Shown here: one piece after another, positions 4,008 through 54,594 of the stretch
Numbering within the stretch: the stretch's first letter is position 1
How the letters are laid out: each line of letters opens with the position of its first letter
Assembly (NCBI GenBank): GCA_964619625.1
Contig: CAZUFD010000001.1
Location: 59,316 to 123,315 of the forward strand
Reading direction: 5' to 3'
Length of the DNA stretch: 64,000 nt
From: an uncultured Gammaproteobacteria bacterium
GTDB lineage: Bacteria > Patescibacteriota > Patescibacteriia > Magasanikbacterales > GWA2-37-8
Notes under the pieces: generated by a model
Seen by the model: the letters and a program-made list of their open reading frames with translations, nothing else
Told to the model about the DNA's origin: nothing
Database searches by the model: none
Position numbers and translations under genes: made by a program

Positions 4008-4571
4008 GTGACAACAAAAAAAGATAAAAAAACTTTAATTATTATTGGTTGCGTCGCCGTTATCGTAGCCGCTTACTTTTTAGGATCTTTGTCGGTAAAA
4101 AATTCACCCTCCACCGAATCTGATCAGGTAGAGAACGCTACAACCAGAGCCGCTACCGATACGGCTAAACTTTATGGAAAGATTGTAAAACTCAATAGCA
4201 AAAACACAGATTTGCGCTTGGTCGAGTGGGTTCAAGGCTCTGATAGTCAAGAGCAGGCCGCACTTGAAACCGGGCGCTGCACACTTGAACGAATCGAGAA
4301 GGATGAATGTCTGCCCAATCCATTTTTCATCCGCGAAACGCAAAAAACACTGACCTTGCCAATGACACCCGATATAAAGATTCAAGTTCTCTCCCCCGGT
4401 CCATCAGGCGAAATCAAACAAGATGAGCAACTCAATACGATTCATCGCGAAATCAACCTTGCTGATCTTGCAAAAATGCTCGAAAACCACGACTTCGCCG
4501 AGCAGACCCCTTTTATCTTTACGACACAATACGGCAGCATTATCAAGATTGAGGAACAATACATCCCGTAA
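4008..4571 (+). CDS. Hypothetical membrane-anchored protein
   Basis: N-terminal TM helix. Start is 1 nt after the previous stop. No recognisable motifs. Confidence 0.45.
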   Translation: MTTKKDKKTLIIIGCVAVIVAAYFLGSLSVKNSPSTESDQVENATTRAATDTAKLYGKIVKLNSKNTDLRLVEWVQGSDSQEQAALETGRCTLERIEKDECLPNPFFIRETQKTLTLPMTPDIKIQVLSPGPSGEIKQDEQLNTIHREINLADLAKMLENHDFAEQTPFIFTTQYGSIIKIEEQYIP

Positions 4572-4756
4572 CTGGCTGGCAGGAAATATTGAAAATGAAA
4601 TTTCCCTCGATTAAAGTTATAATACAAAAAAATAACTAAAGCCCCTGCCAAACCTTCCTCAATTTGACACCATGTCCATTCTATGATATCTTTCTCTTAT
4701 TAAAGAGCTTTCATAAAGAAACGCTCTTTTTTGTTAGCAAATTTTGTGCTATATTT

Positions 4757-4833
4757 GAAGTGAGTGAGCAAAGTAATTAAACTTGTTTTATTACTTTTGA
4801 GCGAACGAGAATATATGTGGCAAAGCCCATATA
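4757..4833 (+). repeat. Intergenic bipartite-hairpin repeat, copy A. An AT-rich hairpin, a GAGCGAACGAG spacer, then a TATATG-GGC/GCC-CATATA hairpin.
   Basis: Near-identical to 16464..16536 over about 73 nt. Related in reverse orientation to 9508..9590 and 13731..13812, and to 31741..31815. Confidence 0.7.
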
Positions 4834-4868
4834 ATAGTAACTAACTACTTTAATTTAAGAAAATACAT

Positions 4869-6098
4869 ATGTCAGATATCACCAAGGCCATGCAAGTATT
4901 GTGTGAGGAAAAAAACCTTTCTTACGAATCCGTATTAGAGGCGATTGAGTTTGCCCTTGCGGCCGCGTATCGTAAGGATTTTGGCAATAAGCAGCAAAAC
5001 ATCAAAGTAAAGTTTGATCCGGAGACTTCGGATATGAAGGCCTGGGATGTAAAAACCGTCGTAGAAGATATTCCCGAAGAAACACTGCTCGCCGCCCAGG
5101 AAGAATTAACCAAACGACGTGAAAAAGCCAAAGAAGAAAAACGGGAGCTTACGGAAGAAGAAACTGAAGATTTACCTCGCTTCAACCCAAAGACCGAGCT
5201 GATGATTTCCGCCGCCAAAGAAATAGATAAAAAAGTAAAAGTGGGAGAAGTAATGGAAATTCCATTAGAAATCCAACACGAATTTGGTCGCATGGCCGCG
5301 CAAACCGCCAAGCAGGTTATCATCCAAAAAATTCGCGAAGCCGAACGCGGTATCATGTTTAATGACTTTAAAGGCCAGGAAGGCCAATTGATCATGGGTA
5401 CGATCCAAAGAGCTGAAGCTCGCAAAGTTTTGGTTGATTTTGGAAAAGTTACCGGCGTACTTCTTGCAGATCAGCAAAACCCTCGCGATCATTATCGTCC
5501 AGGCGCTCGCATGAAGTTTTTGTTATTGTCCGTACAAATGACGCCGCGCGGTTTGGAAGTGTTATTGTCTCGCAGCGATGTCGGTATGGTGCGTGAAATT
5601 TTCAAACAAGAAATTCCGGAAATTAACGACGGTGTCATAGAAATTAAAGGCGTTGCCCGCGAAGCCGGTTTCCGTTCCAAAGTATCTGTATTTACTACCG
5701 ATAAATCAATTGATCCGATCGGCTCTTGTATCGGACAGAAAGGCAGCCGCATAAATACAATTATTGAAGAGCTAGGCGGAGAAAAAATTGATATCATCCA
5801 ATATAGCGAGGATGCGAAAGAGTATATTGCCCATGCTTTGGCTCCGGCAAAAATCTTGGGAGTAAAATTAAATGAGGCTGAAAAAATTGCCGAAGTATCC
5901 GTGGCTACGGATCAGTTCTCCTTGGCTATTGGCCGCAATGGACAAAATGTTCGTTTAGCTGCCAATTTGACCGGTTGGAGAATAGATGTGGTAGAAGAAG
6001 GTGGAAAACAAGAAGTTTCAAGCGATAAAGTTGAACCGGAAGCAGTAGAAGAAGTTGCCGTTGAAGAAGTTAAAGAAGAAGAAAAGGCCAAGGAATAA
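4869..6098 (+). CDS. nusA: Transcription termination/antitermination factor NusA
   Basis: N-terminal NusA domain, an S1-like region and tandem KH domains (GSCIGQKGSRINTIIEELGGEKIDII, AIGRNGQNVRLAANLTGWRIDV), with an acidic C-terminal tail. Confidence 0.85.
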   Translation: MSDITKAMQVLCEEKNLSYESVLEAIEFALAAAYRKDFGNKQQNIKVKFDPETSDMKAWDVKTVVEDIPEETLLAAQEELTKRREKAKEEKRELTEEETEDLPRFNPKTELMISAAKEIDKKVKVGEVMEIPLEIQHEFGRMAAQTAKQVIIQKIREAERGIMFNDFKGQEGQLIMGTIQRAEARKVLVDFGKVTGVLLADQQNPRDHYRPGARMKFLLLSVQMTPRGLEVLLSRSDVGMVREIFKQEIPEINDGVIEIKGVAREAGFRSKVSVFTTDKSIDPIGSCIGQKGSRINTIIEELGGEKIDIIQYSEDAKEYIAHALAPAKILGVKLNEAEKIAEVSVATDQFSLAIGRNGQNVRLAANLTGWRIDVVEEGGKQEVSSDKVEPEAVEEVAVEEVKEEEKAKE

Positions 6099-6132
6099 AT
6101 TCTGTATTCTTTATTCTAAATTCTAGCTAAAA

Positions 6133-6891
6133 TTGTTTATGTTTTCTATTTTCCACACCGTTCTGTATCAACCAATATTCAACCTCTTTGTTTTTTTGTA
6201 TAACATTTTGCCCGGACATGATGTTGGTTTGGTAATTTTGGCAATTACGATTTTAGTGCGTTTGGCAGTCTATCCGCTTACGAGCGCTTCCATAAAATCC
6301 CAGCGCGCCTTACAGGATTTGCAGCCAAAGTTAGCGGCTATAAAACAACAATACGCCGATGATAAACAAAAGCAAACAGTGGCTATCATGGAGATGTATA
6401 AAAATAACAAAGTAAACCCGCTGGCTTCTTGTTTGCCAATGTTAATTCAGTTGCCGATTTTGATTGCTTTGTACGCGGTGTTGCGGGACGGTTTAAATTC
6501 AAAAAATTTAGCAGATTCTCTGTATTCGTTTATCAGTAATCCGGGTACCATAAATCAAATTTCTCTTGGTTTCCTTAATATGGCCAAACCAAACTATGTG
6601 TTGGCAATACTCGCCGGTCTGGCGCAGTATTTCCAAGCCAAAACCCTGAGTACAAAAAATCCTCCTCTTCAAGCCGGTGAAGGTTCAAAAGACGAGGCAA
6701 TGATGTCTATGATGAACAAACAGATGCTTTATTTTATGCCAGTGATGACCGTGGTAATTGGTTTTAATTTGCCCGGCGGACTTACCCTGTATTGGTTCTT
6801 CAGTACATTGCTTATGGTGTTGCAACAGCTATGGATTTCTAAGAATTTCAAAAGCAAGGGCAGCGTCATTGAAGGGCAAATCGTTAAGTAA
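6133..6891 (+). CDS. yidC: Membrane protein insertase YidC/Oxa1 family (short form)
   Basis: Five TM helices, with conserved YidC core motifs (MLPMLIQLPILIALY, GGLTLYWFFSTLLMVLQQ). Confidence 0.8.
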   Translation: MFMFSIFHTVLYQPIFNLFVFLYNILPGHDVGLVILAITILVRLAVYPLTSASIKSQRALQDLQPKLAAIKQQYADDKQKQTVAIMEMYKNNKVNPLASCLPMLIQLPILIALYAVLRDGLNSKNLADSLYSFISNPGTINQISLGFLNMAKPNYVLAILAGLAQYFQAKTLSTKNPPLQAGEGSKDEAMMSMMNKQMLYFMPVMTVVIGFNLPGGLTLYWFFSTLLMVLQQLWISKNFKSKGSVIEGQIVK

Positions 6892-6932
6892 ATATCTCGT
6901 TAGTTAATGTATAACGTATCGGCACGTATTGT

Positions 6933-7199
6933 ATGATTATTAATCTGCGTACATTATTGCATCTGCCGGTTTATACCGAATCTGGAACGAAACTCGGTAC
7001 GGTTTTTGATTTAGAAGTAGATGCCGAAGGGCATGCCATAATGAAGTATTTTGTTAAAGCGAATTTTTTAAGCGTAAAATATTTTCTGATTGAGAAAAGT
7101 TTGGTAAAAGAAATTAAAGAAGACAAAATAGTTGTATATGATAGCGTGGAAAGGGGCAGTTTGCTTGAAGCGCCGCCCAACATGGCTTTAGGCGAGTAA
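6933..7199 (+). CDS. Small hypothetical protein, possibly PRC-barrel-like
   Basis: ORF only. A weak resemblance to a PRC-barrel N-terminus (YTESGTKLGTVFDLEVD). Confidence 0.35.
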   Translation: MIINLRTLLHLPVYTESGTKLGTVFDLEVDAEGHAIMKYFVKANFLSVKYFLIEKSLVKEIKEDKIVVYDSVERGSLLEAPPNMALGE

Positions 7200-7203
7200 C
7201 TGT

Positions 7204-8139
7204 ATGATTCAAGCTGAAACGCTGCAGCGCTCCATAAAAAATACCTTAACTTATTTTGATATAGCTGATTTTCCTCTTACCAAAGAGGAACTTTTTGTTT
7301 TTCTCTGGCAACCGCCCAAGGTTAGTTATGCGAATTTTTTAGAATTTTTACAGTCAAACAATTCGGCATTTGAAACCAAACAGGGTTTTTATTTTTTGCC
7401 GGGCAGATCCAAACTTATAGAAACTAGGCAGCGCCGGCTGCTTATTTCCGAAAAAAAACTTAAGATCGCTCGCCGGGCGGCCAGAATAATTCGTTCCATT
7501 CCATTTTTAAAAGCGGTTTTTGTGTGTAATACCGTCGGGGCGGAACAGGCGACAACGGATAGTGATATAGATTTTTTGATTATCACTGCCCCCAAAAGAA
7601 TTTGGATTACGAGACTCTTTGTAACGTTTTGGTTAAGCGTGTTTAGAATGCGGCGAGTAAAGGATAAAATAAAAGATAAGATATGCTTAAGTTTTTATGT
7701 AACTGCCGATAATTTGGATTTGGCAAAATTTAGAGTGGCCGATGACGACATACACTTTGCATTTTGGATACAGCAAATGTTGCCGATATATGACCCGGAT
7801 AATTATTACGCAAAATTTTTGCAAGCCAACGGGTGGATAAAGCAGTATTTGCCGCATACGGATGCTAGCCGTGTTTCATCGTATATTTTAAATGTTGCGG
7901 AATCTCGTTTTGGCAGGATTTGGAAACGCGCTTGGGAAAAAATGTGGCAGGGAAGTTATGGCGATTTAATTAACAATGAAGCTAAAAAAATACAATTATC
8001 CAAAATGAAGTTTTCCGGCAATAAAATAGATAGAGGCGAAGATAAAGGCGTGGTAATTTCCGATTCTATTTTGAAGTTTCATGAAAAAGATACAAGAGTT
8101 GAATATAGAGAATTATGGAAAAACAAAATTTCAGTTTAA
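7204..8139 (+). CDS. Hypothetical protein with a nucleotidyltransferase (pol-beta-like) motif
   Basis: G[AS]...D.D-like signature in CNTVGAEQATTDSDIDFLII. Confidence 0.45.
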   Translation: MIQAETLQRSIKNTLTYFDIADFPLTKEELFVFLWQPPKVSYANFLEFLQSNNSAFETKQGFYFLPGRSKLIETRQRRLLISEKKLKIARRAARIIRSIPFLKAVFVCNTVGAEQATTDSDIDFLIITAPKRIWITRLFVTFWLSVFRMRRVKDKIKDKICLSFYVTADNLDLAKFRVADDDIHFAFWIQQMLPIYDPDNYYAKFLQANGWIKQYLPHTDASRVSSYILNVAESRFGRIWKRAWEKMWQGSYGDLINNEAKKIQLSKMKFSGNKIDRGEDKGVVISDSILKFHEKDTRVEYRELWKNKISV

Positions 8140-9410
8140 TTTTAAAAAAAGTACAAGATTGGACATTGCTTGCGTTTTTGTTTTTGTTGCCCTGGCAAAC
8201 AAGATATATTTGGCAGTATGGCGATTTAAACGGCGGATATTGGGAATATGGCACGGGCAGTCTTTATGCAACCGAGATTTTGTTGTGGGTTGTTTTAATT
8301 TTATTTTTTGTTAATAATTTTCTAAACAAAGAAGTTTGGACAAATTTATTTAAAAAGAAGAATATTTTTTCTTTGGCATTTACTGGATTTTTGGCTGCAG
8401 CAGGCACGTCAGTAATTTTGAGTGAAAATTTTGGTATATCATACAATTATATTTTTCGTATTTTGGAAGGCATGGCCATAATGACGGTGTTGGCGCGATT
8501 AGGGTGGAATAATAAATATATTTTTGCTATCTGGCTAGGTGCGGTAGGGCAGGGTATATTGGCAATGTATCAATTTTTAAATCAGAGTGTTTTTGCAAGC
8601 TCTTGGCTAGGCATGGCCGGGCAGGAGGCGTATAATTTAGGCCCAAGCGTGATAGAGTTTGCCGACCAAAGATGGCTGCGCGCGTATGGCAGTTTTGGTT
8701 CGCCAAATTCTTTGGGGATTTATTTGGCAGTATTATTTGTTTTAGGTTTTATTCTGTATTTTAAAACGCAAATACCGCGCTATAAAATTTTAATCAGCGT
8801 CGGTCAGTTGCTAGTTTTGTCTGGCTTGATTCTTTCTTTTTCTCGCGGAGCGTGGCTGTCCACTTTAGTTGGGCTTGTATCTTTGGCCGTTGTTTTATTT
8901 TTTAAACAAAAAGATTTTTTACGAGATTTTATTAAGCAGACAGCCTTTGCTTTGGCGGTTGTAGTTTTTTGGGTAGCAATTTTTTACCCGGTGTTTAATG
9001 CCCGTTTTAACTTACAAAACCGTTTGGAAGCAAAATCTGTTTCCGAAAGAAAAGGGCAGTATAGCGAATCTTTGTCTTTTATCAAATCAAATCCAATTTT
9101 TGGGGTTGGGCCGGGCGTATATACTTTTGCTTTGGCCAAAAAATATCCGGAGCTAGCTTTTTGGCAGCTGCAGCCGATACATAATATTTATTTGCTTCTT
9201 CTTGTAGAAATGGGCATATTTGGTATGTTGGCCATATTTTTATTGGCTATTAGTATTGCTAGATTGATAATTAAAACTAACTTAATTTACGCACCAGTTT
9301 TGGTTGTCTTGTTTACTTCTGGGATGCTAGATCACTGGTTGGTCAGCCTGTTTACAGGCATGGTTTTTTGGTGGGTAGTTTTGGGTTTAGGTCTAAAAAG
9401 AGACTCTTGA
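8115..9410 (+). CDS. O-antigen ligase/polymerase-like (Wzy_C family) polytopic membrane protein
   Basis: At least 10 predicted TM helices. Contains the conserved Wzy_C loop motif SFSRGAWLS. Confidence 0.6.
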   Translation: MEKQNFSLILKKVQDWTLLAFLFLLPWQTRYIWQYGDLNGGYWEYGTGSLYATEILLWVVLILFFVNNFLNKEVWTNLFKKKNIFSLAFTGFLAAAGTSVILSENFGISYNYIFRILEGMAIMTVLARLGWNNKYIFAIWLGAVGQGILAMYQFLNQSVFASSWLGMAGQEAYNLGPSVIEFADQRWLRAYGSFGSPNSLGIYLAVLFVLGFILYFKTQIPRYKILISVGQLLVLSGLILSFSRGAWLSTLVGLVSLAVVLFFKQKDFLRDFIKQTAFALAVVVFWVAIFYPVFNARFNLQNRLEAKSVSERKGQYSESLSFIKSNPIFGVGPGVYTFALAKKYPELAFWQLQPIHNIYLLLLVEMGIFGMLAIFLLAISIARLIIKTNLIYAPVLVVLFTSGMLDHWLVSLFTGMVFWWVVLGLGLKRDS

Positions 9411-9507
9411 CACCCGGTTTTTCTTCTAGTAAAATGAGTTCACTCTTATCACTCTATTATTTTGAGTGCTAATAACTTTAATTAATAGCAATTAACTATC
9501 TAAATAT

Positions 9508-9590
9508 ATAGGGGCTTAAGCCGCATATATTCTCATTCACTCGGAATTAAATTAAACACATTTAATTTAATTCGCTCATTCATTTCGAAT
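9508..9590 (-). repeat. Intergenic bipartite-hairpin repeat, copy B, in reverse orientation. It ends at the groES start codon.
   Basis: Contains ATATAT-GGGGC-TTAA-GCCGC-ATATAT and the perfect AT hairpin GAATTAAATTAAA-cac-ATTTAATTTAATTC. Very similar to copy C. Confidence 0.65.
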
Positions 9591-9875
9591 ATGCAAATTA
9601 AACCATTAGGAGATAATGTTCTGGTAAAGCAAATCAAGGCCGATGAAGTGACTTCGTTTGGTTTGGTGTTGCCGGATAAAGACGAGAAAAAAGCCGAAGC
9701 CGAAGTAGTGGCCGTTGGTCCGGGTAAATTGCTTGAAAACGGACAGCGCAGCACTATGGAAGTAAAAGTAGGCGATAAAGTGTTATTAAAAAATTGGGGA
9801 GGAGAAAAAGTGGAATTAAATAAAGAAGAGTATAAAATTGTTTCACAGGATGATATTTTGGCAATAATTCAATAA
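9591..9875 (+). CDS. groES: Co-chaperonin GroES
   Basis: 94 aa. MQIKPLGDNVLVK...GLVLPD...mobile-loop pattern. Sits immediately upstream of groEL. Confidence 0.9.
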   Translation: MQIKPLGDNVLVKQIKADEVTSFGLVLPDKDEKKAEAEVVAVGPGKLLENGQRSTMEVKVGDKVLLKNWGGEKVELNKEEYKIVSQDDILAIIQ

Positions 9876-9974
9876 GAGTCTCATTTCTTAATTCACAATT
9901 GCTAGGGTTGAGTAAAAAAGAAAATTAATTTTCTTTTTTCGAAGCCCGACGTAATTGCAAAGTTTTACTTTTAA

Positions 9975-11630
<1,656 letters not shown>

Positions 11631-11646
11631 AAATCAAATTAAACAA

Positions 11647-11676
11647 AAGCGCTCCGAAAGGGGCGTTTTTGTTTGT
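11647..11676 (+). terminator. Rho-independent terminator after groEL
   Basis: GC stem CGCTCC-gaaa-GGGGCG followed by TTTTTGTTTG. Confidence 0.6.
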
Positions 11677-11722
11677 AAAAAATTTACATTAAGAGTAAAA
11701 TTAATTTAATCCATTTTGTTCT

Positions 11723-12223
11723 ATGAATTCAGCTATTCAATCTATAATTTCCGCATTTTCTGGTTTTCCTCCCGAACTGGCCACGTTTTTGGTAGCTATG
11801 ACGCCGATTTTGGAGCAAAGAGTAGCGCTACCCATGGCTATTATCGGTTTTGGCATGCCAGCCTGGAAGGCTCTTATAATTACACTTGCCGGAAATTTAT
11901 TGCCTATCACCGCATTATTGTATTTTGCCGATAATTTCCACCGTTGGGTGCAAAAAAATTCCGGTACTTTTTGGGGCAAAGCCTGGCTCAAGAAGCTTAA
12001 AGTAGCGCAGGAAAAATTTGCTAAGTATGAAAAGTACGGTCTACTTGGTCTGGCGATTTTTATCGCCTTACCAATTCCGGGCAGCGGAATTTTTACCGGT
12101 ACGATGTTGGCATTTTTGATGGGCGTGCCGTTTAAACACTCGCTGCCATATATTTGGGCGGCTGTTATTGGTTCATCTTTTGTAACTATGTTTATATCAA
12201 TTGGTGCTGATAAGATATTTTAG
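11723..12223 (+). CDS. Small polytopic membrane protein, putative small multidrug export family (COG2426-like)
   Basis: Four predicted TM helices. Resemblance to Sm_multidrug_ex-type proteins is recalled from memory, not searched. Confidence 0.45.
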   Translation: MNSAIQSIISAFSGFPPELATFLVAMTPILEQRVALPMAIIGFGMPAWKALIITLAGNLLPITALLYFADNFHRWVQKNSGTFWGKAWLKKLKVAQEKFAKYEKYGLLGLAIFIALPIPGSGIFTGTMLAFLMGVPFKHSLPYIWAAVIGSSFVTMFISIGADKIF

Positions 12224-12230
12224 GATTATT

Positions 12231-12653
12231 ATGGCAGAAGAGTCTGGTTCGAAAAAATCTATTTATGTTGATCCAAAACATATAGAACATGCTTTTGACT
12301 TTCCATTTTGGCGGGACAATAAAAAGCTATGGGCATTAGAAGTCCCTACTGAAGAGATGGATATTAATGAATTGTTGTGGATTTTAGAAGTTCCTTTTTG
12401 GGAAGATGAAAATGGAAATATTGTGATTTCGCCATTTGAAGTTATTAATAATCCAGATCAATATCCATTGCACAGAGATAAAATAAAAAATGCTGATATA
12501 ACACATCCCATTGATATAGCAAGGAATAAGAAAGGTGAGTGGTTGACCTTGGATGGACTGCATCGTCTAGTGAAATTGGTATTAGCAAAAGAAAAAATTA
12601 TTAAGATAAGAAAAATACCACCTGAACTCATTCCCTCAATAGCACAAGATTAG
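12231..12653 (+). CDS. Hypothetical protein with a possible ParB/Srx-like DGxHR motif
   Basis: Start chosen at MAEESG, which has an AGGA RBS. LTLDGLHRLVKLVLA resembles the ParB-nuclease-domain motif. Weak. Confidence 0.4.
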   Translation: MAEESGSKKSIYVDPKHIEHAFDFPFWRDNKKLWALEVPTEEMDINELLWILEVPFWEDENGNIVISPFEVINNPDQYPLHRDKIKNADITHPIDIARNKKGEWLTLDGLHRLVKLVLAKEKIIKIRKIPPELIPSIAQD

Positions 12654-12654
12654 T

Positions 12655-13731
12655 ATGTCCGTAGAAGATTTAAAAGAATTACAATCAAAAATAAAAGATA
12701 CAAAAAAACTTCTCAGTATTGAAGAGTTACAAAAGAAAATGGCGCAACTGGCAGATGAAATGAACGCGCCTGATTTTTGGAATAACCAAGAAAACGCCCA
12801 AGCGGTCAGCCAGGATTATCAAGATATAAAAAAAGAAATAGAAAAATTTGAAGACTTGGAAAAAAGAGCGAGCGACCTGTTGGAATTATCCGAATCCGGA
12901 GATGAATCATTGGCTGCGGAAATAGAAAGTCAAACCAAAAAATTACAAAAAGAATTCGCTGATTATGAATTTTTGGTACTGCTTAATGGGCCTTATGATA
13001 AAAATAACGCCATTATAACTATTCACGCCGGCGCCGGTGGTACCGAAGCTCAAGATTGGGCCGAAATGCTGCTAAGAATGATTATGCGTTTTTGCGATAA
13101 GATGCATTGGCAAACAAAAATTCTAGACGAATCGCGCGGAGCTGAAGCTGGTTATAAATCAGTAATGCTAGAAATAAAAGGAAGATACGCGTATGGATAT
13201 TTAAAATCCGAACACGGCGTGCACCGCCTGGTACGCATCTCTCCGTTTGATGCGGAAAAAATGCGCCACACTTCTTTTGCTTTAATAGAAGTTTTGCCCG
13301 AATTGGATGAAAAAATAAATATTGAAATTGATGCTAAAGATTTACGAATTGATACGTTTATGTCCGGCGGAAAAGGCGGGCAGAGCGTGAACACCACATA
13401 TTCGGCGGTGCGAATCGTGCATATTCCTACAAACATTTCTGTATCATGTCAGAACGAACGATCGCAGCAGCAAAACAAGGATATGGCCATGAAAATTTTG
13501 AAAGCAAAGTTGCATGCCTTGGAAGAAGAAAAGAAAGCCAAAGAACGCCAGGAAATGCGCGGCGAATTTAAATCCGCGGAGTGGGGCAATCAAATTCGTT
13601 CCTATGTGTTGCATCCATATCATTTAGTAAAAGATAACCGCAGCGAATATGAATCAGCAGACCCAGAATCAGTTTTGGAAGGAGATCTATTGCCGCTTAG
13701 CGAAGCGTATTTGAAATGGATAAAACAATAG
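12655..13731 (+). CDS. prfB: Peptide chain release factor 2
   Basis: The RF2-specific SPF tripeptide (RISPFD) and the GGQ motif (GGQSVNTT) are both present. The full N-terminus is in frame, so there is no +1 frameshift site. Confidence 0.9.
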   Translation: MSVEDLKELQSKIKDTKKLLSIEELQKKMAQLADEMNAPDFWNNQENAQAVSQDYQDIKKEIEKFEDLEKRASDLLELSESGDESLAAEIESQTKKLQKEFADYEFLVLLNGPYDKNNAIITIHAGAGGTEAQDWAEMLLRMIMRFCDKMHWQTKILDESRGAEAGYKSVMLEIKGRYAYGYLKSEHGVHRLVRISPFDAEKMRHTSFALIEVLPELDEKINIEIDAKDLRIDTFMSGGKGGQSVNTTYSAVRIVHIPTNISVSCQNERSQQQNKDMAMKILKAKLHALEEEKKAKERQEMRGEFKSAEWGNQIRSYVLHPYHLVKDNRSEYESADPESVLEGDLLPLSEAYLKWIKQ

Positions 13732-13812
13732 TATATGGGCTAAAGCCGCATATATTCTCATTCGCTCGGAAATAAATTAATACATTAATTTATTTCTCTC
13801 ACTCATTTCGAT
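13731..13812 (-). repeat. Intergenic bipartite-hairpin repeat, copy C, in reverse orientation. It fills the whole prfB-stop to tsaC-start gap.
   Basis: Contains ATATGGGC-TAAA-GCCGCATATAT and the perfect palindrome GAAATAAATTAAT-aca-TTAATTTATTTC. Its reverse complement aligns to copy A over about 75 nt, with compensatory changes in the GC hairpin. Confidence 0.7.
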
Positions 13813-13813
13813 T

Positions 13814-14416
13814 ATGGAAGTTTTAAAAGAGTGCAACCTGTCGGAAATAATCGTGGCTTTATTAGCAGGCAAGGTTTTGGTATTTCCTACGGAAACTTCT
13901 TATGGTTTGGGTTGTGACGCCACCAACCAAGAAGCCGTAAATAAAATTTTTAAGATAAAAGGCAGAAGCGATGATAAACCGCTTCTTATAGTAATGCCAA
14001 ATGTAGAAGTGGCAAAAAAATATGTGGTATGGAATAATACCATAGAGAAATTAGCAAGCGCGTATTGGCCAGGGGCCCTTACCATTGTTGGTCAAGCGTT
14101 GCCAAATTCCGGTTTGGCGAGCGGAGTAATCTCAAAAAATAATACCGTGGCCGTGCGTGTCAGCAAACATGATTTAGTAAAGTTTTTAAGCGAAAGTTTG
14201 GGTAAACCGCTTGTGGCAACTTCGGCCAATATCTCTGGTGCCGGAGATGTGTATAGCGGCAGCGCTGCCAAAATTATGTTTGCCGATAAAAAAAATCAGC
14301 CGGATATTATTTTAGATTTCGGAGAGTTGGAGCCCCGCCCTCCCACAACCCTGGTTGATGCAAGTAGTGATATAATGAGTATTATAAGACAAGGCCAAGT
14401 AGAAATAAACATCTAA
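13814..14416 (+). CDS. tsaC: L-threonylcarbamoyladenylate synthase (YrdC/TsaC/Sua5 domain)
   Basis: YrdC-domain motifs (FPTETSYGLGCDA and KGRSDDKPLLIVM) in a 200-aa single-domain protein. Confidence 0.8.
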   Translation: MEVLKECNLSEIIVALLAGKVLVFPTETSYGLGCDATNQEAVNKIFKIKGRSDDKPLLIVMPNVEVAKKYVVWNNTIEKLASAYWPGALTIVGQALPNSGLASGVISKNNTVAVRVSKHDLVKFLSESLGKPLVATSANISGAGDVYSGSAAKIMFADKKNQPDIILDFGELEPRPPTTLVDASSDIMSIIRQGQVEINI

Positions 14417-14418
14417 AC

Positions 14419-15567
14419 ATGTTTTCCATAAAAATTAAAGGCTGGGTAGCGTGGATGATAATCGGCATGGGTGCTGTAATTTTTTCTATTATATTTTTGG
14501 TTCAATATATTGTAGCCGTAGCCGAAACAGAATCCATGAGTGTTATGTCGCTGTTTCAGGCGGATCTTATTTCCGGCTATCAGCCCCGTAGCCGCAAAGA
14601 GCCTATAAAAGTAAAAGGTTTATACCTTACGGCATATTCGGCCGGCAGTGATAAAAAAATAAATTCCATAATTGATTTGGTAAATAAAACTGAACTAAAC
14701 GCGGTAGTCATAGATTTAAAAGATTATAGCGGTAAGGTGCTTTACGATTCACGAATCGCGCTAGTTGATGATTTGAAATTGCAAGATATTAGAATTAAAA
14801 ACGTTCCAGAGCTTCTGGAAAAATTGGATGATAATCATGTTTATAAAATCGCCCGTATTAGTGTTTTTCAAGATCCGATTTTGGCTGAACGTAAACCAGA
14901 GTGGGCTATAAAATCAAAAAAGGGCGGTTTGTGGCGGGATAAAAATAATTTGGCTTGGGTGGACCCGACTAATAAAGAAGTTTGGGCGTATGTGGCATCG
15001 GTCGCCAAAGAAGCTGGTCGGCTTGGTTTTGATGAAATAAATTTTGATTATATCCGGTTTCCCACCGATGGTCCGATGGGCGATATTGTTTATACTAACG
15101 GCAACAGCAAGCGCTACGAAGTCGTGGAAAAATTTTTTAAATACCTGTCTCATGAAATGCAAGACGAGCCAGTTTATATCTCGGCCGATTTATTTGGTCT
15201 GACTACGGAAAAGAAAGGGGAAGATGATATGCGAATCGGCCAGCGTTTGGACGATGCAGTTTTGTATTTTGATTATGTTATGCCCATGGTTTATCCGTCG
15301 CACTACCCGACCGGTTATCGCGGCTACAAAAACCCTGCCAATTACCCGTATGAAGTGGTTTATCAGTCTATGAAAGCCGGAGTAAAAAAATCCGAAGGAA
15401 AAAAAGCCAAGCTTCGCGCTTGGATTCAAGCGTTTAATTTGGGGGCGGTTTACGATGGTACAAAAATTCGCGCGGAGATAAAAGCGACCGATGACGCGGG
15501 TGCCGATGGCTGGGTGCTTTGGAACGCAGCTAACCGATATACGGATGCGGGTTTGGAAAAGGAGTGA
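14419..15567 (+). CDS. Putative glycoside-hydrolase-like TIM-barrel protein (GHL/DUF4015-like), membrane-anchored
   Basis: N-terminal TM helix. The motif FDEINFDYIRFP resembles the conserved ..DYIRYP motif of GHL-type putative glycosyl hydrolases. The family assignment is from memory. Confidence 0.5.
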   Translation: MFSIKIKGWVAWMIIGMGAVIFSIIFLVQYIVAVAETESMSVMSLFQADLISGYQPRSRKEPIKVKGLYLTAYSAGSDKKINSIIDLVNKTELNAVVIDLKDYSGKVLYDSRIALVDDLKLQDIRIKNVPELLEKLDDNHVYKIARISVFQDPILAERKPEWAIKSKKGGLWRDKNNLAWVDPTNKEVWAYVASVAKEAGRLGFDEINFDYIRFPTDGPMGDIVYTNGNSKRYEVVEKFFKYLSHEMQDEPVYISADLFGLTTEKKGEDDMRIGQRLDDAVLYFDYVMPMVYPSHYPTGYRGYKNPANYPYEVVYQSMKAGVKKSEGKKAKLRAWIQAFNLGAVYDGTKIRAEIKATDDAGADGWVLWNAANRYTDAGLEKE

Positions 15568-16409
15568 TCGGAATTATTATGAACCTAAAATTATTTAACG
15601 AAGATTATTTAAAACACCTCTGTAAACAATACGGCCTTATCCCCTCCAAAAAATACGGGCAGAATTTTTTGATAAATCCAGAACCGATAGAAGCCATGAT
15701 AGCGGCGGCGGAGATTAAAAAAGATGATACGGTGGTAGAAGTGGGTCCGGGCTTCGGCGTGCTTACGCTTGCTTTGGCCGAACAAGCAAAAAAGGTGTTG
15801 TCTTTTGAAATTGAAAAAAAACTGGAATCTTATTGGCAAGAACAAATGGAGCATAATAAAAATATAGAAATAATTTGGGGCAATATATTACACGAATTTA
15901 AAGGTGGTGGATTAAAAGCGGGGGAGTACAAAGTAGTAGCCAATTTGCCATATCAAATCACTTCGCATGTAATTAGGAAATTTTTAGAAATGGAAAATAG
16001 TCCGGAGATGTTAGTTTTGATGGTGCAAAAAGAAGTGGCCGAAAGAATTTGTGCGCAAGCAGGGGAGATGTCCGTCTTGGCAGTGTCTGTTCAGTATTAT
16101 GGTAAGCCAGAGATTGTCACTTTTGTACCACGTTCATCTTTTTGGCCAATGCCGGCGGTAGATTCGGCGGTGATTAAAATAAGAATTACGAATCATGAAC
16201 TAAGAAGCAAGAATAATAGCGAACATTTTTTCAAAATAATTAAAGCCGGGTTTTCCAGCCGCCGCAAAATGCTTATAAAAAATTTGAGCGCGGTGGCTGA
16301 TAAAAATATGTTGCGCGGTATCTTTAAAGAATTAAATATAGACGAAAAGGTGAGGGCGCAAGAATTAAGCGTGGAGCAGTGGAAAGAGATTGTAAGAAGT
16401 ATAGAGTAG
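15564..16409 (+). CDS. rsmA: 16S rRNA (adenine1518/1519-N6)-dimethyltransferase RsmA/KsgA
   Basis: YGQNFL motif and the SAM-binding VVEVGPGFGVLT motif, with a C-terminal helical domain. Confidence 0.9.
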   Translation: MIGIIMNLKLFNEDYLKHLCKQYGLIPSKKYGQNFLINPEPIEAMIAAAEIKKDDTVVEVGPGFGVLTLALAEQAKKVLSFEIEKKLESYWQEQMEHNKNIEIIWGNILHEFKGGGLKAGEYKVVANLPYQITSHVIRKFLEMENSPEMLVLMVQKEVAERICAQAGEMSVLAVSVQYYGKPEIVTFVPRSSFWPMPAVDSAVIKIRITNHELRSKNNSEHFFKIIKAGFSSRRKMLIKNLSAVADKNMLRGIFKELNIDEKVRAQELSVEQWKEIVRSIE

Positions 16410-16463
16410 TGAATAAGGTTATCCCCATTAAACTCTTTCGCATACTGTGATATACTATATTCG

Positions 16464-16536
16464 AAGTGAGCGAATATAGTAATAAAGCTTGCTTTGTTAC
16501 TTTTGAGCGAACGAGAATATATGTGGCAAAGCCCAT
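16464..16536 (+). repeat. Intergenic bipartite-hairpin repeat, copy D
   Basis: GAAGTGAGCGAATATAGTAATAAAGCTTGCTTTGTTACTTTTGAGCGAACGAGAATATATGTGGCAAAGCCCAT is near-identical to copy A. Confidence 0.7.
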
Positions 16537-16559
16537 GCAGTTAATTAACAGATGTTCGT

Positions 16560-17150
16560 ATGCCAGAGGAGCAAGATGAGAGACGGCTCTCTAAGGAACA
16601 AAAAATGGGCATAATCTTGCTCTCTATTTTTGCTGTATTCGCCATTGGCTTAGGTTTCTTGCAGATCCGCAATACCATGTATGCGCCGTTTGCGCTCAAT
16701 AATAAAGTTCCGTATGTAGTCAAAGATGATATAGAAACAAACGAAGCGTTAATGTATCGCGACACAGATAAAGACGGCCTTAATGATTTTGATGAATTGT
16801 ACGTATATATCACCAGTCCGTATTTAGCTGATACTGACTCCGATGGTATAAATGATAAAACCGAAATAGAAAAAGGATCAAACCCAATTTGTCCAGAAGG
16901 CCAAGTTTGTTCCGAAGCAGCGCTAAGCGGTGATACGCTCCCCAACACCACACCAATCGCGTCGGCTAGTTCAACATTGGGGCCGCCGCCTTCGGCCGAA
17001 GAGCTAGAAAAAATATTAAGCAGTCCGGCCGAGACTCGCAAGATGCTGCTGGCCGCGGGCTTTGATAAAAAGATTTTAGATCAAACATCCGACGAGGAAT
17101 TAATGAAGATGGTCAAAGAAATTTTAAGTTCTACGAGTACTCGATTTTAG
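16560..17150 (+). CDS. Membrane-anchored protein with Asp-rich calcium-binding (thrombospondin type-3/dockerin-like) repeats
   Basis: N-terminal TM helix. Repeats DTDKDGLNDFDE and DTDSDGINDKTE. Confidence 0.5.
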   Translation: MPEEQDERRLSKEQKMGIILLSIFAVFAIGLGFLQIRNTMYAPFALNNKVPYVVKDDIETNEALMYRDTDKDGLNDFDELYVYITSPYLADTDSDGINDKTEIEKGSNPICPEGQVCSEAALSGDTLPNTTPIASASSTLGPPPSAEELEKILSSPAETRKMLLAAGFDKKILDQTSDEELMKMVKEILSSTSTRF

Positions 17151-17158
17151 TATGCTAG

Positions 17159-20100
17159 TTGCCAGTTTGGCGTAATATGACAAAGTTTCAAAAATTCGGG
17201 ATAAAATTTTTGTTAGCAGTATTTACCTTTATCACTATCGGCGGATCTTTGTTTTATGTTCAGCCCGCCAAAGCTTTTCCTGTAGAAATTACCTGGGATC
17301 CGGGCTATGTTTGGAGTGTCTATAAAAGTTTTATAAAAGACGCGGCCGTAAGTATCAGCATCCAAACTTTTTCTTATTTTTTACGTCGAGTCGCGTATGA
17401 TTCGGCAGTTTGGCTTGCTTCCGGAGGAAAGGGGCAGGCATCTTTTGCGTATGGAAAAAACTTCGGTGATTATTTAAAAGACGTGGGTGATAGCGCCGCG
17501 GGTGTGGCCATTGAAGCTTTGGGCGAAGACTTTGGTTTTAATTTATGTAAGATTCCTGACCCAAAAATAGATTTGGCTATGCGTATCGGGCTTACGTATA
17601 AATTCATGGATTTAAAGCCGGATTTAAATACTGGTCCGGGAGTGCGTGAGCCAACTTGTACCTGGTCAACATTTCAAAATGACGTCTTAAGCGTGGATAA
17701 TTGGCAAAGCCAGTTTGGGAGCTCCGATAGTATAGCTCGTAAATTTAATGTGGCTTTTTCCGTAGAACAAACAGATATTGGTATCTTGCGCGGCGCTACA
17801 GATAAAATCAATAAATATGTGGCAAAGAAAATTGAAGCCGAGACGCTGCAAAGACAAGAGGGCGAGGGCTATTTGCCAAAAACTACGCTTATTTCCGGAG
17901 ATATTCTAGCTCCGGGCAAGAACATTTCCGAGGAAGCACAGGCGCAGAACCCTAACAAGCAAATCGAAGCGGCCCAAGCCGGATTTTTAACTACCTTGGG
18001 TACGGGTGCGGTCGGCACAATTGCCAGCGCCGGTTCAATATTTTTTAACACCTTAGCTTCACAAATGTTAAAAAATTGGCAGAATAAAGGCATGCTGCCG
18101 TTTGGTATTGGTTGTGTGGCTGGCGTGGGTACCGAATGTAAAGATGTGCAAGATACGCTAAGTAATTTACAGGGACAAGTTTCTCGCGGCGGCAGGCAGG
18201 CCGCACAGGCTTTGTTTAGCGATCTTTTAACGCCGCCAAATATCGCAGTTGATCAGTATAATGTTTTAGTAAATTTTACCAATTGTCCTACCAGCCCCGG
18301 TCCGGATAATTGTGTGGCGGATGCCGGTTTGGCCCAGGCCGCTCAAGAGGCAAATTCTGGCCGCACCGTTACGATCGCTGAAGCTTTAGAAAAAAATTGG
18401 CTCCATGCCGAATGGAGGCTAGTTTCTCCGGATAGGGTAGCCGATAATGTAGACCCAGGCTGTCACCAGCGAGCGTATTGTTATGCCAATATCGCCAAGC
18501 TGCGTAAAGCGCGAATTTTGCCGCTTGGTTTTGAAATCGCAGCCTTAAACAGCAACCCGGATCAGCCATGGACGCTCAAACAGGTTGTGGACGGATTTAA
18601 CGACTGTAATTTTATTAGAGATGTAAATGGTAATGTGGTGGGAGTTGATAACGATCCGGTCAATAAACCGTTCTGTAGATTGATTGATCCAAATTGGGTC
18701 TTGAAAGCGCCGTCGTCAAAGTGTAATTTCATGGCTTATGGAACCAGCCCATATTTTTCCGGTACGCCAAATCGTATTCAGGAGTGTGTAAATATGAGTA
18801 CCTGTGTGGCCTATGATAAGGATGGAAATTGTGCCACGCAAGGATACTGCACCCGAGAAAAAAATGTTTGGAAAATAGACGCGGCTAAATGTGATTCGCA
18901 AAATCGCACCTGCCGTACATTCCAGGATAGTACCGGCAAGACTGTAAGCTATTTGTACAGAACCTTGGATACCGGTTTTTGTAATCAAGATACCGTAGGC
19001 TGCGCCGAGTATAGTTTAAAGCAAAATACTGCCGGCAATTGGGTTGGATACGCGGAAAATGATCTAGGCTCTTTAGGAGAAAATTCTTCCGTTTACTTTA
19101 ATAATAAAGTTTCCACCAACTGTTCATCTAATTCAGACGGATGCTCTTCTTTCCAGGTGGCCAACAGTTCAGAAAAATTATATCTCAAAAAAGCGCCATA
19201 TTATAGCCAGTGTTATGATACGGATTTGTCTACGGCAGCCATAGATTGGCCGCGTACAGCCAGCGATTTAAATAGGCTGCCAAATAAACCGGCTTGCAAT
19301 AATTATTCCCAAGCCTGTATTGCCGACGAAGTAAATTGTAATTGGTACTCACCAACCAGTTATACGGGAGACAATATTCCCGGCAAATACACCCCGGCTA
19401 CTGTTTTGGAAGGCCAAATAGTTTGGAACGATCAGTGTGATGCTAGATGCGTGGGGTATGCCGCATACAGGGAAATGCCAAGTAATTATTCCAACGGTCA
19501 ACCTGTTTCTTACATTATTCCTTCATCTGGCAATTCGTGTAACGCCGTAGATGAGGGCTGTGCCAGCTTTACAAACCTCGGCACAACCGAAGGCGGTTTG
19601 GAAAAAGTTGAGCATTATTCTTATTTGCGACCTTGTATTTTGCCCGACACCACTAAACAAAAGACATTCTTTACATACGAAGGATCGGCTGTGGGCGGTT
19701 TCCAACTGAAGAGTTTTGTTTTAGAAAAAGATACGGATGGCAGTCCTAAATATTTTTATCGCACTGCCGATGATTTGGCTACGTATGCAGCTACTTGCAG
19801 CCAAAGCCTCTATCAACAAGGCTTGGCAAATCCGGATTGCCGTCAATTTAATGATGATCAAGGGGCTGTATATTACAAATTATTGTCAAAGACTATCGCG
19901 GTTGCCAGTAACTGTACGCCATTTAGATTAAATGATACCGAACTACACGATGTTGCGTTAAATGAAGTCAATTGTTTGGCGCAAAGAGGAAAATGGGATG
20001 CAACTGCCGGAAGTTGTCAGGTATGTTTCCAAAATGGTGAATACCGAGACGGTGAGTGTTTCTATTATGGCCTGCCCGGAAGTACGCCTAATACGGCCGG

Positions 20101-23100
20101 TACCAGCAAGCCATGCGCCGCAGCGGTAAATACCTGCCGCGCTTATAAAGGAAACACCGGCAACAATGTCCGTAATATTTTTACCAACAATTTTGAACAA
20201 GCGGTCGCGTCCGATGCTTTAGCTGGCTGGGGACCATCCGCGGATATCGCGCAATCACTTGAATCAACCCGGTCTGGAGAACATTCCTTGTCATATAATG
20301 GCACAGGCGCAGTATACAAGGACATACTATTAACTCCAGGTGAAAGTTATGATCTTACGTTCTGGGCCAAAGGAGCGGTGGGAGAAACAGTTACAGTTAC
20401 TTTAGAAAATAATCAAGTTTCTAATTTGGGTACAATCAGTGTCGGCGATGCTTGGCAAAATTATCACCTCGGTCCAATAGAATTAGCCGGAAATGTTTCC
20501 AGTACCAAATTGCAATTTGCAGTTAACGGCCGGTTATTCTTGGATAATGTTCGCCTCAAAGAAGTTGCCGATTTTATCTATCTTGTCAAAAATTCCCTCA
20601 GTGTTGATCCGGTTTGTGATAGCAATCTAAACGATAATTTACCGGGCGAAGCCTTGGGTTGTTCGCAGTATCAGACCCCAGATAATAGGCCAATTTATTT
20701 AACTGGTTTTACTTCGCTGTGTCGTGAAAAAGCAATCGGTTGTACGGCAGTATATGATACGCGCAATACGCCGGATGAAGTCGGCCCACGAGCGTATAAT
20801 GTTTGGCTATCTGGGCCAGAAGGTCAAAGTACCAGCCGAAATATTATTGGCACGGAATATAGATGCCAGGTTGCGCTTGGTCAAAAAGGTTGTTATGTAC
20901 ATGTAACCGGCGCAAATTTAAGCGCTATAGTTGCCGGCGGAGGCGCGATAGTTACTTCAACTATATACGTGCAGCCAGATTCGCCAACTACCACGCCTCT
21001 ATATTTAGTAGCTAGCCGTGAAGCGACCTGTAGTCCGGTTGATTTAGGTTGTACGAAAGCCGGAAAACTGGTACAGACTCCAACCGGCCCAACGTATACC
21101 GAGGTAATAGTCAAAAAAGATCCGAGCAGTTTTAATACCACGCTTTGTCAGCAGGAAGCGGTTGGTTGTAACGCATACTCTTCAAGCGATGGGGCGCTGT
21201 ACTTTAAAGATCCGCAGTATTTAGGTCAAAAAGTTTGCGCTTACAGAGATAATATAACTAAAAACGGTGTTAGATATAATGGTTGGTTCTGGAAAGGCGT
21301 AGGCAAGTGTGGCGCCGGCGCCGTCAGCGATCCATTCTGTACCAAAGACAGCGATTGCGCGGCCGGAGTTACCTGTAATCAAAAAGATGAACAGCCGTGC
21401 TATCCAAATTATTTGCAATCCGGAAATAGCTACGGCCTGTGGTCGTATGGCGTAAGCAGTTCATATAATAATTTTGTGGGTGAATGTCCTGCTACCCAAA
21501 ACGGTTGTACCGAATTTATAGATCGTAATGAAAATAATAAAACATATTATCTTATTAATGATGACAGGTTAAAGACACAGCAAACTGAATGCAACGGACA
21601 AATCAGTGAAAAATCCGGTTGTATATTGCTTGATAAAACCGATTCGCCAAATAAATTATGGAATACAGCCGCTTCGTATGCGGCCAGCGCCGGCCAAAAT
21701 AATAATTTAGTCGCGCCAGTTGCTGGAACAGGTACGGCCACAAACGATGCCAATGTTATTTTGAAAGTCAGCCGAGATAGAGAATGTGGAGAGTGGCTCC
21801 AATGCCGATCTTCGCATCGTGTCTTTGACACGCAATCGGGCAGCTACAAAGAAGTTTGTGACGCCATCGGCCGCTGTAATAAATCTTTGGATTCATACAG
21901 CAACACCGACTTTATCAATTGCTCCAATTGGCTTGATAACAACCACGAACTCAGCAATCAGATTTTAACTGATGACGCGTACCGCAATCGCAATACCACT
22001 TGGAAAGGCCAGGACTTTAGCGGTTACAGTATTTTAAATACTTTCCCTGTGGAAGAATTGTCCGAAGTAAATGTGGGCAACGCTACCGTGGCCGATTGGC
22101 GTTTGGCCAAAACACTCGCTTGTGGCGGAGGTCCTAATTGCAGATCTGCCGCCGACCTTAATAGTCCATCTTGTAGATCAACCAGTGTTGGGTTGCCGTG
22201 TGGTCGCAATAATGCTGGTGTTTGTTTGGGTTCGGTAAATCCAGTTTGTGTCCAGGATTTAGACAGTCCGGCTGTTGGTGTTCCTCGTCAATCCATAGCG
22301 CCAAGCTGTCGCGCTTATCCGGAAGAAACTTCGCCGTTCCCCAATAGCCAAGCTATCAACGAGTCGCTTGCGTTTAATTCTGTAAATACATGTAATGAAA
22401 ATCCGGGCTTTAGCAATGATCCTGCTAAATACAACAGTTGTGAATGTAATTACACCAAAGTTACATATGGAGACGCAATCACAAAATATTGGAATTTCAG
22501 CAATCCGAACAATGAGGGTATCTTGGATGCCAATAATCAAAATTTACAAGGCGTGGTAAGTGGAATCTGTGTTGGCGGCGACAGCGCCGATCGGGCTTGT
22601 GATTCAGATAGTGATTGCGCTGGCGGAAGCTGTCAAAAATTAAAGAAACAATCTCGTCTTATCGGTTGGCAAGGATATTGTGTGGAACCTGATTTGTCCA
22701 GACCGCTTAATGCCGAACAAAATAGTTTTGCCTGCTTAACCTGGTTCCCTAAAGACAATATCACCGGCGCGTTTGATATAAATAATCAGCATGTGGAGGC
22801 CGGTTTCCAGGCGACCGAAACAAACGGTAAATATTACTGCTTGGAAGCAAAAGGTTATCAGGAAACTAATAGTAATACGGCGGTAAATGGAACGGGTGCG
22901 CTTACATATAACAAGCTTTTGGGGGGCGTGTTAGTCGATCATAATGGAAGTAATAATACTACTAATAGAGAAAAAAGAGTTATAGCAGTAAGTAGTGGCC
23001 GTCCGATTTATCGCGATGAGATTGATTATATTTTAATATCTCCTGGAACCGGTGGCGGAAGCTGGTTTCCAAATACCAGCGAACCTTTCCTGTCTTTCTA

Positions 23101-29080: not shown

Positions 29081-29085
29081 TTTGT

Positions 29086-30096: not shown

Positions 30097-30105
30097 CATG
30101 CATAT

Positions 30106-31299: not shown

Positions 31300-31306
31300 T
31301 ATTAAT

Positions 31307-31815: not shown

Positions 31816-31832
31816 AATAGTAAATAATACAT

Positions 31833-32510: not shown

Positions 32511-32522
32511 TTTAAGAATTAT

Positions 32523-47007: not shown

Positions 47008-47028
47008 AATTATTTGCTTGCTTAACCC

Positions 47029-54588: not shown

Positions 54589-54594
54589 TTAATT

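Follow-up and report, generated by a model that had tools for sequence, protein, structure and literature searches.

Dispersed, structured repeats in intergenic spacers are well known as a kind of bacterial sequence. The closest described systems are the Correia/NEMIS repeats of Neisseria, the enterobacterial ERIC/IRU sequences and the pneumococcal RUP and BOX elements, all of which resemble MITEs (see below), form long hairpins and are transcribed with their neighbours; the repetitive extragenic palindromic sequences (REPs), which are 20-40 nt long, carry a 5' GTAG and lie mostly downstream of genes; and the palindrome-associated transposable elements (PATEs) derived from IS200/IS605. The genomes of bacteria of the candidate phyla radiation (CPR) are tiny and generally regarded as poor in mobile DNA, and how these bacteria initiate translation without Shine-Dalgarno sites is very little understood. 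Here we describe a repeat of about 85 nt with five copies in a 64,000-nt stretch of contig CAZUFD010000001.1 (assembly GCA_964619625.1, positions 59,316 to 123,315; hereafter the window), from an uncultured member of the Magasanikbacterales. We regard it as probably (at about 0.72) a small non-autonomous mobile DNA element, similar to REPs and to miniature inverted-repeat transposable elements (MITEs). As far as we can tell the family, its one-strand helix of G·A and G·U pairs, and its welding to start codons are undescribed. Rfam at gathering thresholds finds only four tRNAs in the whole window and no family matching the element, a search with copy A at E values up to 10 gives noise only, and a literature search found no paper with the core sequences or with such a repeat in Patescibacteria; the repeat was thus rightly called previously unannotated in an earlier note made from the DNA letters alone.

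The repeat family and its folding strand

The window has five matches to the core GAGYGAAYGAGAATATATGYGGC at up to three mismatches, and 100 shuffles give an expectation of 0.00. Covariance model R1, built from an alignment of 44 full copies, passes just these five there (66.9-97.8 bits, E 1e-10 to 3e-17), and they are the five that the earlier note had located; they can be aligned along roughly 90 nt. It had put their length at about 75 nt; the unit is about 85 nt and runs 10-20 nt further on one side, where a conserved 5' arm that had been missed, (C/T)ATATTCGAA(A/G)TGAGTGAG, lies before the AT-rich hairpin in all five. A variant of about 125 nt with an extended central hairpin also occurs in the family.

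One genome per species was searched with the 19-mer GAGYGAAYGAGAATATATG, which matched 59 loci (loci are cited here by L-numbers), most of them from metagenome-assembled genomes (MAGs) of Candidatus Magasanikbacteria and other Patescibacteria. R1 recovers 78 good copies from the window and these loci (about 0.49 Mb, about 18 genomes), including some with no match to the 19-mer pattern. These further copies and relatives uphold the earlier proposal of a dispersed REP/MITE-like family in either orientation rather than a unidirectional riboswitch, and the likeness is not merely that of low-complexity AT-rich sequence, since the purine-rich arms are the best-conserved parts. Copies also occur as head-to-tail tandems of up to three (L018) that share the terminal TATA, and subfamilies defined by the sequence of the AT-rich hairpin recur at different loci in different genomes.

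Several of the matching MAGs bear the labels Gammaproteobacteria or Udaeobacter; L041, among those so labelled, shares synteny and 78-84% DNA identity with the window, which makes at least its label wrong. The window TsaC is 75% identical to that of JACOYB01 (L060), and the gene content of the window (groES/groEL, nusA, prfA, ksgA, a PrgI/VirB4-like cluster and a 2532-aa open reading frame, ORF) fits a kinship with Magasanikbacteria. A 15-nt pattern from the 5' arm, which proved too short, gave at least four true copies among 100 metagenome loci listed, the rest being mostly chance matches. The one 19-mer match in a viral collection (L064) is rejected by R1 and is due to chance. As far as seen, the family is confined to Magasanikbacteria-like Patescibacteria.

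We call the purine-rich strand, which is the folding one, P, and the strands of copies are stated for P. After a flank N-ATA it reads TTCGAAATGAGTGAG(N)GAAAT, P2 (the variable AT-rich stem-loop), CCGAGCGAATGAGAATATATG, P3 (a small GC hairpin YGGC-loop-GCC, often GGCGAAGCC) and C(C)TATA, with the arm 3' of P2 read as ATTTCCGAGCGAATGAGAATATATG before P3. Pairing between the purine-rich arms gives a single long helix with P2 as its cap. From the outside this consists of P1 (ATATTC/GAATAT), a GAA/GA internal loop, an A-U and a U-A pair, a tandem G·A/A·G, a G-C and a U·G pair, a second tandem G·A/A·G and a G-C pair, after which P2 begins. Three tandem G·A steps are set apart by 2-bp Watson-Crick steps, one of them holding the conserved U·G. 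P3 follows directly upon P1 and would stack beside it, so that folding brings both ends of the element side by side. The element termini, TTCGAAATG... and ...GCCCCT, are not inverted repeats, and complementarity of the arms is limited to every other 2-bp step. A kink-turn was rejected by eye, the G·A steps having no preceding 3-nt bulge in the required register.

Compensatory changes, reported earlier for the hairpins, extend to the arms. In the 44-copy alignment 92% of cells are paired, 18 pairs are doubly changed and none of 500 shuffles reaches the score. An alignment of 88 copies, which was made with the model and leans toward it, has 93% of cells paired and double changes in 26 of the 29 pairs, against 35-54% paired for control structures slid by 1-3 columns. 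RNAalifold finds the same long hairpin unaided and also pairs flank base 1 with G71 (CG 35, UG 7, AG 2). Within the arms, pair 15-56 is GC in 35 copies and AU in 8, pair 11-60 is AU in 40 and GC in 2 (44 copies), and P1 has the subfamilies ATATAC/GTATAT, ATTTTC/GAAAAT, ATTTGC/GCAAAT and ATTTAC/GTAAAT. Two copies are truncated: at L035 (minus, about 6862 in reverse-strand coordinates) a gene's ATG adjoins a copy with neither 5' arm nor P2, and at L049 (minus, about 1434) the 5' arm is fused directly to P3; both appear to show internal deletions of the element.

The earlier note had favoured a symmetric element, a view that the pairing contradicts. Of 44 copies, 42 have U·G at pair 17-55, a pairing that on the other strand would be C·A; over all pairs G·U outnumbers A·C by 148 to 24 (80 when pair 17-55 is left out); and on the complement the tandem G·A steps turn into C·U/U·C. 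Under RNA parameters P is the more stable strand in 75 of 78 copies, averaging -19.3 kcal/mol against -14.7 kcal/mol for the other strand. The element is asymmetric, with only one strand predicted to fold well.

Insertion sites and start codons

Comparison of related junctions with and without the element points to mobility. The prfA-tsaC junction is empty in JACOYB01, where it reads GCTAGTATGGAAG, that is the stop codon TAG, one T and ATG; the window has a filled junction, TAG-TAT[ATGGGC...TTTCGAT-TAT]GGAAG, with TAT at both sides. Conversely, L048 has the element, with the TAT overlapping the ATG, at the junction that corresponds to window 54589-54594 (between orthologues of 53893-54588 and 54595-55926); neither the window nor L045 has a copy at this site. 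ATA flanks P at both sides in all copies. Filled sites with an apparent TAT duplication are thus matched by precise empty ones, which bears out the target-site duplication that had earlier been considered. The gene rplK is abutted in three of nine genomes and has no element in the other six, and in L185 a copy stands at the nusG ATG instead. At cysS and at a response regulator gene the element is present in one of three syntenic genomes each, different genes being occupied in each genome. Among genomes syntenic with the window, L041 has a nusA leader without copy A and with another repeat in its place, and L062 has no copy D.

A second, unrelated repeat family, GTGTCAT-(GC-rich hairpin, for example TCCCGCGCAGGCGGGA)...ATGACAC, takes the same junctions as the element of the window (prfA/tsaC, ksgA/next gene, the nusA leader and the rplK leader). 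It is found at L062:2918-3000 and 5634-5705, at L041:2745-2800 (minus) and in the nusG-rplK spacers of L186, L189, L190 and L044. Just past the nusG stop codon all nine genomes (L185-L190, L005, L023 and L044) have a hairpin with G(G/C)GCTTCTC(A/G)G, which by its sequence is probably the rplKA leader of the L1-binding type and lies upstream of the repeat where a repeat is present.

P begins with CAT in 54 of the 78 copies; read on the opposite strand, this CAT opens a long ORF as its ATG in 52. The abutted proteins have the expected N-termini (GroES MQIKPLGD, L11 MAKKLMAQVKLQ, RecA MAKQSEEVKQKLKAAESAIEQIKTKFGDGAIM, and likewise SSB, L20, S3, S17, TrmD, CysS and thioredoxin), so that these ATGs are real start codons. 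An ATG is abutted in the opposite orientation by a single copy (L055:4374), and about 10 of 78 copies are P-sense. Two genes, each antisense to P, flank 49 of the copies, which often fill the whole spacer from stop to start. The 51 abutted genes are functionally unrelated, except that L11 is found three times; they include groES, tsaC, recA, ssb, trx, ligA, cysS and the genes of L19, L20, S3, S17 and RNase Y.

We find no Shine-Dalgarno motif upstream of 53 window genes. Among 453 genes in the loci, T is at position -1 in 289 of 344 predicted ATG starts (84%, by crude gene calls), often as (A/C)AT-ATG, so T-ATG offers a TAT target at most genes. Availability of the target sets an expectation of about 9% of copies at starts (from 2807 other intergenic ATA/TAT sites and the 289 T-ATG starts), against the 67% observed, an excess of about 7-fold. 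When only CATA is considered, 52 of 54 copies are at starts compared with 42% expected from 404 other intergenic TATG/CATA sites. A preference for C in the flank arising solely from its pairing with G71 is rejected, since just 2 of 54 CATA-flanked copies are away from starts, though about 58% of such sites are elsewhere.

At the abutting copies the mRNA holds the pyrimidine-rich strand, ...GGGGC-loop-GCCGCAUAUAUUCUCAUUCGCUCGG-hairpin-CACUCACUCAUUUCGAAU-AUG, which is free of AUG ahead of the start and nearly devoid of G over its final 20 nt. In the mRNA the arm beside the AUG is predicted to stay unpaired, since its pairs would there turn into C·U and C·A. The common orientation gives the leader no upstream AUG; the opposite one would give it two AUGs and a hairpin of roughly -19 kcal/mol. 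Selection on the effect of insertion upon the mRNA would account for the start-codon bias. The arms are conserved to the same degree in ATG-abutting copies (0.915) and in the others (0.914), so that this conservation is intrinsic to the element. A promoter inside the element was rejected, as there is no consistent -35/-10 at a fixed place and groES has its own promoter and CIRCE operator upstream; leaderless transcription from the element is also unlikely, since by eye the last 12 nt before the ATG are unlike a -10 box.

The two copies of the window that abut start codons are B and C. Copy B (9507-9593, minus, 91 bits) lies within the groES 5' untranslated region (UTR), and its first three bases, 9591-9593, are on the other strand the groES ATG (Cpn10 Pfam match 9591-9875). 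Copy C (13732-13816, minus, 97.8 bits) wholly fills the spacer from the prfA stop codon TAG at 13729-13731 to the tsaC ATG at 13814-13816, both neighbours being identified by Pfam (PCRF/RF-1 and Sua5 matches). The ends of B and C had been placed at start codons, which holds for groES (ATG at 9591) and tsaC (ATG at 13814). The groES gene has a promoter on the plus strand, TTGACA at 9407-9412 and TAAAAT at 9430-9435 with a 17-nt spacer, which is the best promoter match in 4500-17000 (11/12 positions). A CIRCE operator, TTATCACTC-N9-GAGTGCTAA, follows on the same strand at 9446-9472, about 120 nt upstream of groES. Both are upstream of copy B, so it is transcribed in the groES mRNA with the pyrimidine-rich strand as RNA. 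The CIRCE consensus is established knowledge from HrcA regulons, and its match here together with the promoter would imply heat-shock control of the HrcA type in this CPR genome. A possible but weak and decayed sixth copy lies in the groES-groEL spacer at 9896-9983 (plus; 25.8 bits and E 0.007 once the filters are switched off, otherwise missed), where an AT hairpin is flanked by GAGT.../CGAAGC.

For copies A, D and E it is P that has the mRNA sense, and each lies 22-35 nt 5' of the next ATG. Copy A (4750-4833, plus, 91.8 bits) belongs to the GAAGTG...GAACGAG subfamily and ends in the nusA leader 35 nt before the nusA ATG (4869); its 5' flank, TGTGC-TATA, resembles an extended -10. Copy D (16456-16539, plus, 89.1 bits) lies between ksgA/rsmA, which ends at 16409, and a 196-aa gene with its ATG at 16560; it is 89% identical to A and has a degenerate 3' end (ATGCA for ATATA). 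The most divergent of the five is copy E (31718-31802, plus, 66.9 bits), which ends 30 nt before the ATG (31833) of a TraC/VirB4-like gene, the flanking genes being called by Pfam (PrgI, and TraC_F_IV for the downstream gene). Its 5' arm overlaps and supplies the last 8 or so codons and the stop (TAA 31739-31741) of the PrgI-like ORF, so that the claim that copies C and E start at a stop codon stands for C alone. None of A, D and E retains the arm ATG (GAAATG has become GAAGTG or GAAGCG), and in each of them pairing is preserved by a compensating T-to-C change on the opposite arm. Both orientations do occur, as had been noted, and yet they are not equivalent: B and C, formerly termed reversed, belong to the dominant start-codon class (52/78), and the forward copies A, D and E to a minority subfamily in 5' leaders.

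We note that the nusA leaders of the window (4664-4735) and of L041 (2810-2875, minus) share a conserved promoter, TTGACA-17-TATCTT with an upstream TG. It is followed in both by a terminator-like hairpin with a T-run, upstream of the different repeat inserted in each genome; from its sequence this may be a leader attenuator.

Explanations for the repeat

In the reading that we prefer, a mobile element of the MITE/REP kind inserts at a TAT/ATA trinucleotide, which is then present at both sides. For two thirds of the copies the TAT used is the T at -1 together with the AT of the start codon (T-ATG), the target gene keeping its ATG and the element becoming the last 85 nt or so of its leader. The mobilising enzyme would recognise the strand-specific fold, probably on single-stranded DNA, and insertions at start codons would be tolerated or favoured in hosts without Shine-Dalgarno sites and removed elsewhere or in the other orientation. 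Several observations weigh against this reading. No transposase domain is present in 30 window ORFs scanned, and in the approximately 0.5 Mb around the copies there is no recurrent gene or protein family beside them, no long element with the same ends (TTCGAAATGAG... and ...GCCCCTATA) and no pair of arms more than 140 nt apart; these negatives for a transposase or parent element are weak, as they cover only that sequence. Classical (Watson-Crick) terminal inverted repeats are not found in the element. With DNA parameters, which give no reward for G·T or G·A, the two strands tie, and by these folding models the strand asymmetry would fit RNA at least as well as single-stranded DNA. The dominant class folds on the template strand of transcription, which, the genes being co-directional, is not the lagging-strand template favoured by IS200/IS605. 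The roughly 7-fold excess at start codons goes beyond what the target sequence explains, and it is from this that we infer selection. Finally, between genomes with TsaC identities of just 57-75%, arm conservation stays near 95%, for which a function in the host could also be responsible.

In a rival reading the repeat is a portable translation leader, domesticated or beneficial, that serves as a standard 5' UTR for initiation without Shine-Dalgarno sites and is kept for better or insulated expression. Its two upstream hairpins would protect the 5' part, and a G-poor, AUG-free, unpaired pad of 18-20 nt would end in ...CAUUUCGAAU-AUG. The exact abutment in 52 of 78 copies, even at genes with long spacers that offer many other TAT sites, the 52 to 1 bias of orientation at starts, the high expression of many abutted genes (L11, L19, L20, S3, S17, groES, recA, ssb, trx), hosts that lack Shine-Dalgarno sites and arms so well kept across divergent genomes all agree with it. 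We nevertheless hold it to be unlikely, given that the ATG-side arm is no better conserved at starts than elsewhere, that most orthologues do without the element (rplK in 6 of 9 genomes, cysS in 2 of 3, the response regulator in 2 of 3) and that the covariation and the G·U pattern select for a structure of the opposite strand which a leader would not need. A combination of the two is conceivable and on balance doubtful: a mobile leader that homes to start codons through T-ATG-directed transposition or is positively retained there, folds on one strand for its mobility, thanks to its asymmetric G·A and G·U pairs, and on the other forms an unstructured, AUG-free leader for loading ribosomes. Such an element would remodel the 5' UTRs of core genes by the dozen in CPR bacteria that have no Shine-Dalgarno sites, and its minority of opposite orientation would yield RNAs complementary to those leaders.

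Complementarity of this kind is the basis of another explanation, that of an antisense or sponge network in which a transcribed P strand pairs its purine-rich arms with the pyrimidine-rich leaders of dozens of genes and exerts global post-transcriptional control. Transcription would come from a TATATT/CATATT box, -10-like, at the 5' edge of P, or from leaders (that of nusA for copy A, and those of the genes after D and E). The G·U excess, the tandem G·A steps and a P strand more stable under RNA but not DNA parameters speak for it, as do the placing of P-sense copies A and D directly after an extended -10-like TGTGnTATA and the loss of the arm ATG to GTG/GCG in A, D and E with its compensating change, which suggests transcription and a need to fold. 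However, the element has no conserved promoter or terminator (scans give generic matches) and no U-tract after P3, P-sense copies are a small minority, and the changes in A, D and E may be one subfamily event, so that we find the network quite improbable. A cis-acting RNA that controls the flanking genes, whether riboswitch, protein-binding leader, attenuator or the putative terminator and RNase punctuation that had been suggested earlier, has very little probability left and as a whole is largely refuted already. The repeat is indeed structured, conserved and covarying, and it is intergenic and co-transcribed, as in the groES 5' UTR; but it finds no match in Rfam even at the most permissive setting, its folding strand is antisense to the mRNA in most copies, the downstream genes have no common function, orthologous positions are not kept and may be empty, tandem arrays are present, and no U-tract follows either hairpin. 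Equally remote is a site in duplex DNA for a dimeric regulator or nucleoid protein, or a cruciform, the former of which had been among the earlier suggestions. The outer stem CATATTC...GAATATG and a TTCGAA hexamer are palindromic, and GAATGAG is present in both arms. The arms are nevertheless not inverted repeats in double-stranded DNA, G·A and G·U being the sole means by which they pair; the conserved U·G, the tandem G·A steps and the G·U excess make a palindromic site for a dimer unlikely, a conserved 85-nt unit with a variable, covarying hairpin far exceeds an operator, and insertion polymorphism with TAT duplication indicates mobility.

Other window features and likeness to known systems

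Among the other features of the window, a cluster at 25895-34394 resembles type IV secretion or conjugation systems, with large unannotated ORFs, a PrgI-like gene and a TraC/VirB4-like ATPase whose gene seems to be broken into the ORFs 31833-32510 and 32523-34394; copy E lies between the PrgI-like gene and the ATPase. The 2532-aa ORF (17159-24757) is directly downstream of the gene after copy D, and synteny is kept in L062, where the product has 2537 aa. Two adjacent paralogues of 311 and 341 aa at 46072-47992 form a tandem duplication of about 960 nt with 72-81% DNA identity. ARAGORN reports a tRNA-Ser of 90 nt with the anticodon ACT at 49023-49112 (minus; Rfam tRNA 54.5 bits), adjoining a normal tRNA-Ser(GCT) at 48500-48585; a serine tRNA with A34 would be unusual.

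The element takes the place of the sequence just before the AUG in groES, recA, ssb, several ribosomal protein genes and others, which indicates that initiation in these bacteria tolerates or exploits a foreign leader provided that it is unpaired and AUG-free, and the family is in this respect a natural experiment on what a leader requires. It can also serve to mark genome dynamics at the level of strains in uncultivated lineages, and it is an example of a repeat whose pairing is built for one strand only. For annotation it is a hazard, as gene callers may extend ORFs into such repeats and motif hunters may take them for regulatory RNAs.

Integron attC sites can be set aside as relatives, there being no RYYYAAC...GTTRRRY boxes in the consensus and the copies being scattered among housekeeping genes in both orientations. 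The IS200/IS605-derived PATEs, which move as single-stranded DNA, are nearer, having recognisable hairpins on one strand only. As in these, the element lies directly 3' of a short flank, N-ATA, and ends in TATA, tandem copies abut exactly, and the pair of flank base 1 with G71 recalls the pairing of guide and cleavage site. Together with the strand-specific fold, these traits are reminiscent of HUH-type single-strand systems, whether IS200/IS605 or REP/RAYT. It differs from PATEs in that its left and right hairpins are dissimilar, its orientation appears to depart from the lagging-strand-template prediction, and no Y1 transposase was found in the window ORFs or the loci around the copies. The window copies, three on the plus and two on the minus strand, are within one GC-skew domain, and the N-ATA flank and TATA end fit a 3-bp duplication and an IS200/IS605-type insertion equally. 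With REPs, their clusters (BIMEs) and the associated RAYT proteins, which are domesticated Y1 HUH transposases, the element has in common strand-asymmetric imperfect hairpins in many copies and tandem clusters, sequence classes kept for long in a lineage, and copies with no transposase beside them. It differs from a REP in its 85 nt, its bipartite form, a consensus without GTAG and its place at gene starts (52/78).

The Correia, ERIC and RUP type of repeat differs in host clade, the element being found in CPR bacteria, and has no sequence similarity to it; those repeats duplicate TA where the element duplicates TAT, and the element has, in place of Watson-Crick terminal inverted repeats, a one-strand pairing through tandem G·A and G·U. 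We know of no description in these families of two thirds of the copies being welded in one orientation to start codons. In other traits the two agree: like Correia/NEMIS, ERIC/IRU and RUP/BOX, the element is small, non-coding and present in multiple copies in both orientations, has AT-rich targets with a short duplication, is polymorphic in presence and absence, and is co-transcribed with neighbours whose leaders it can alter.

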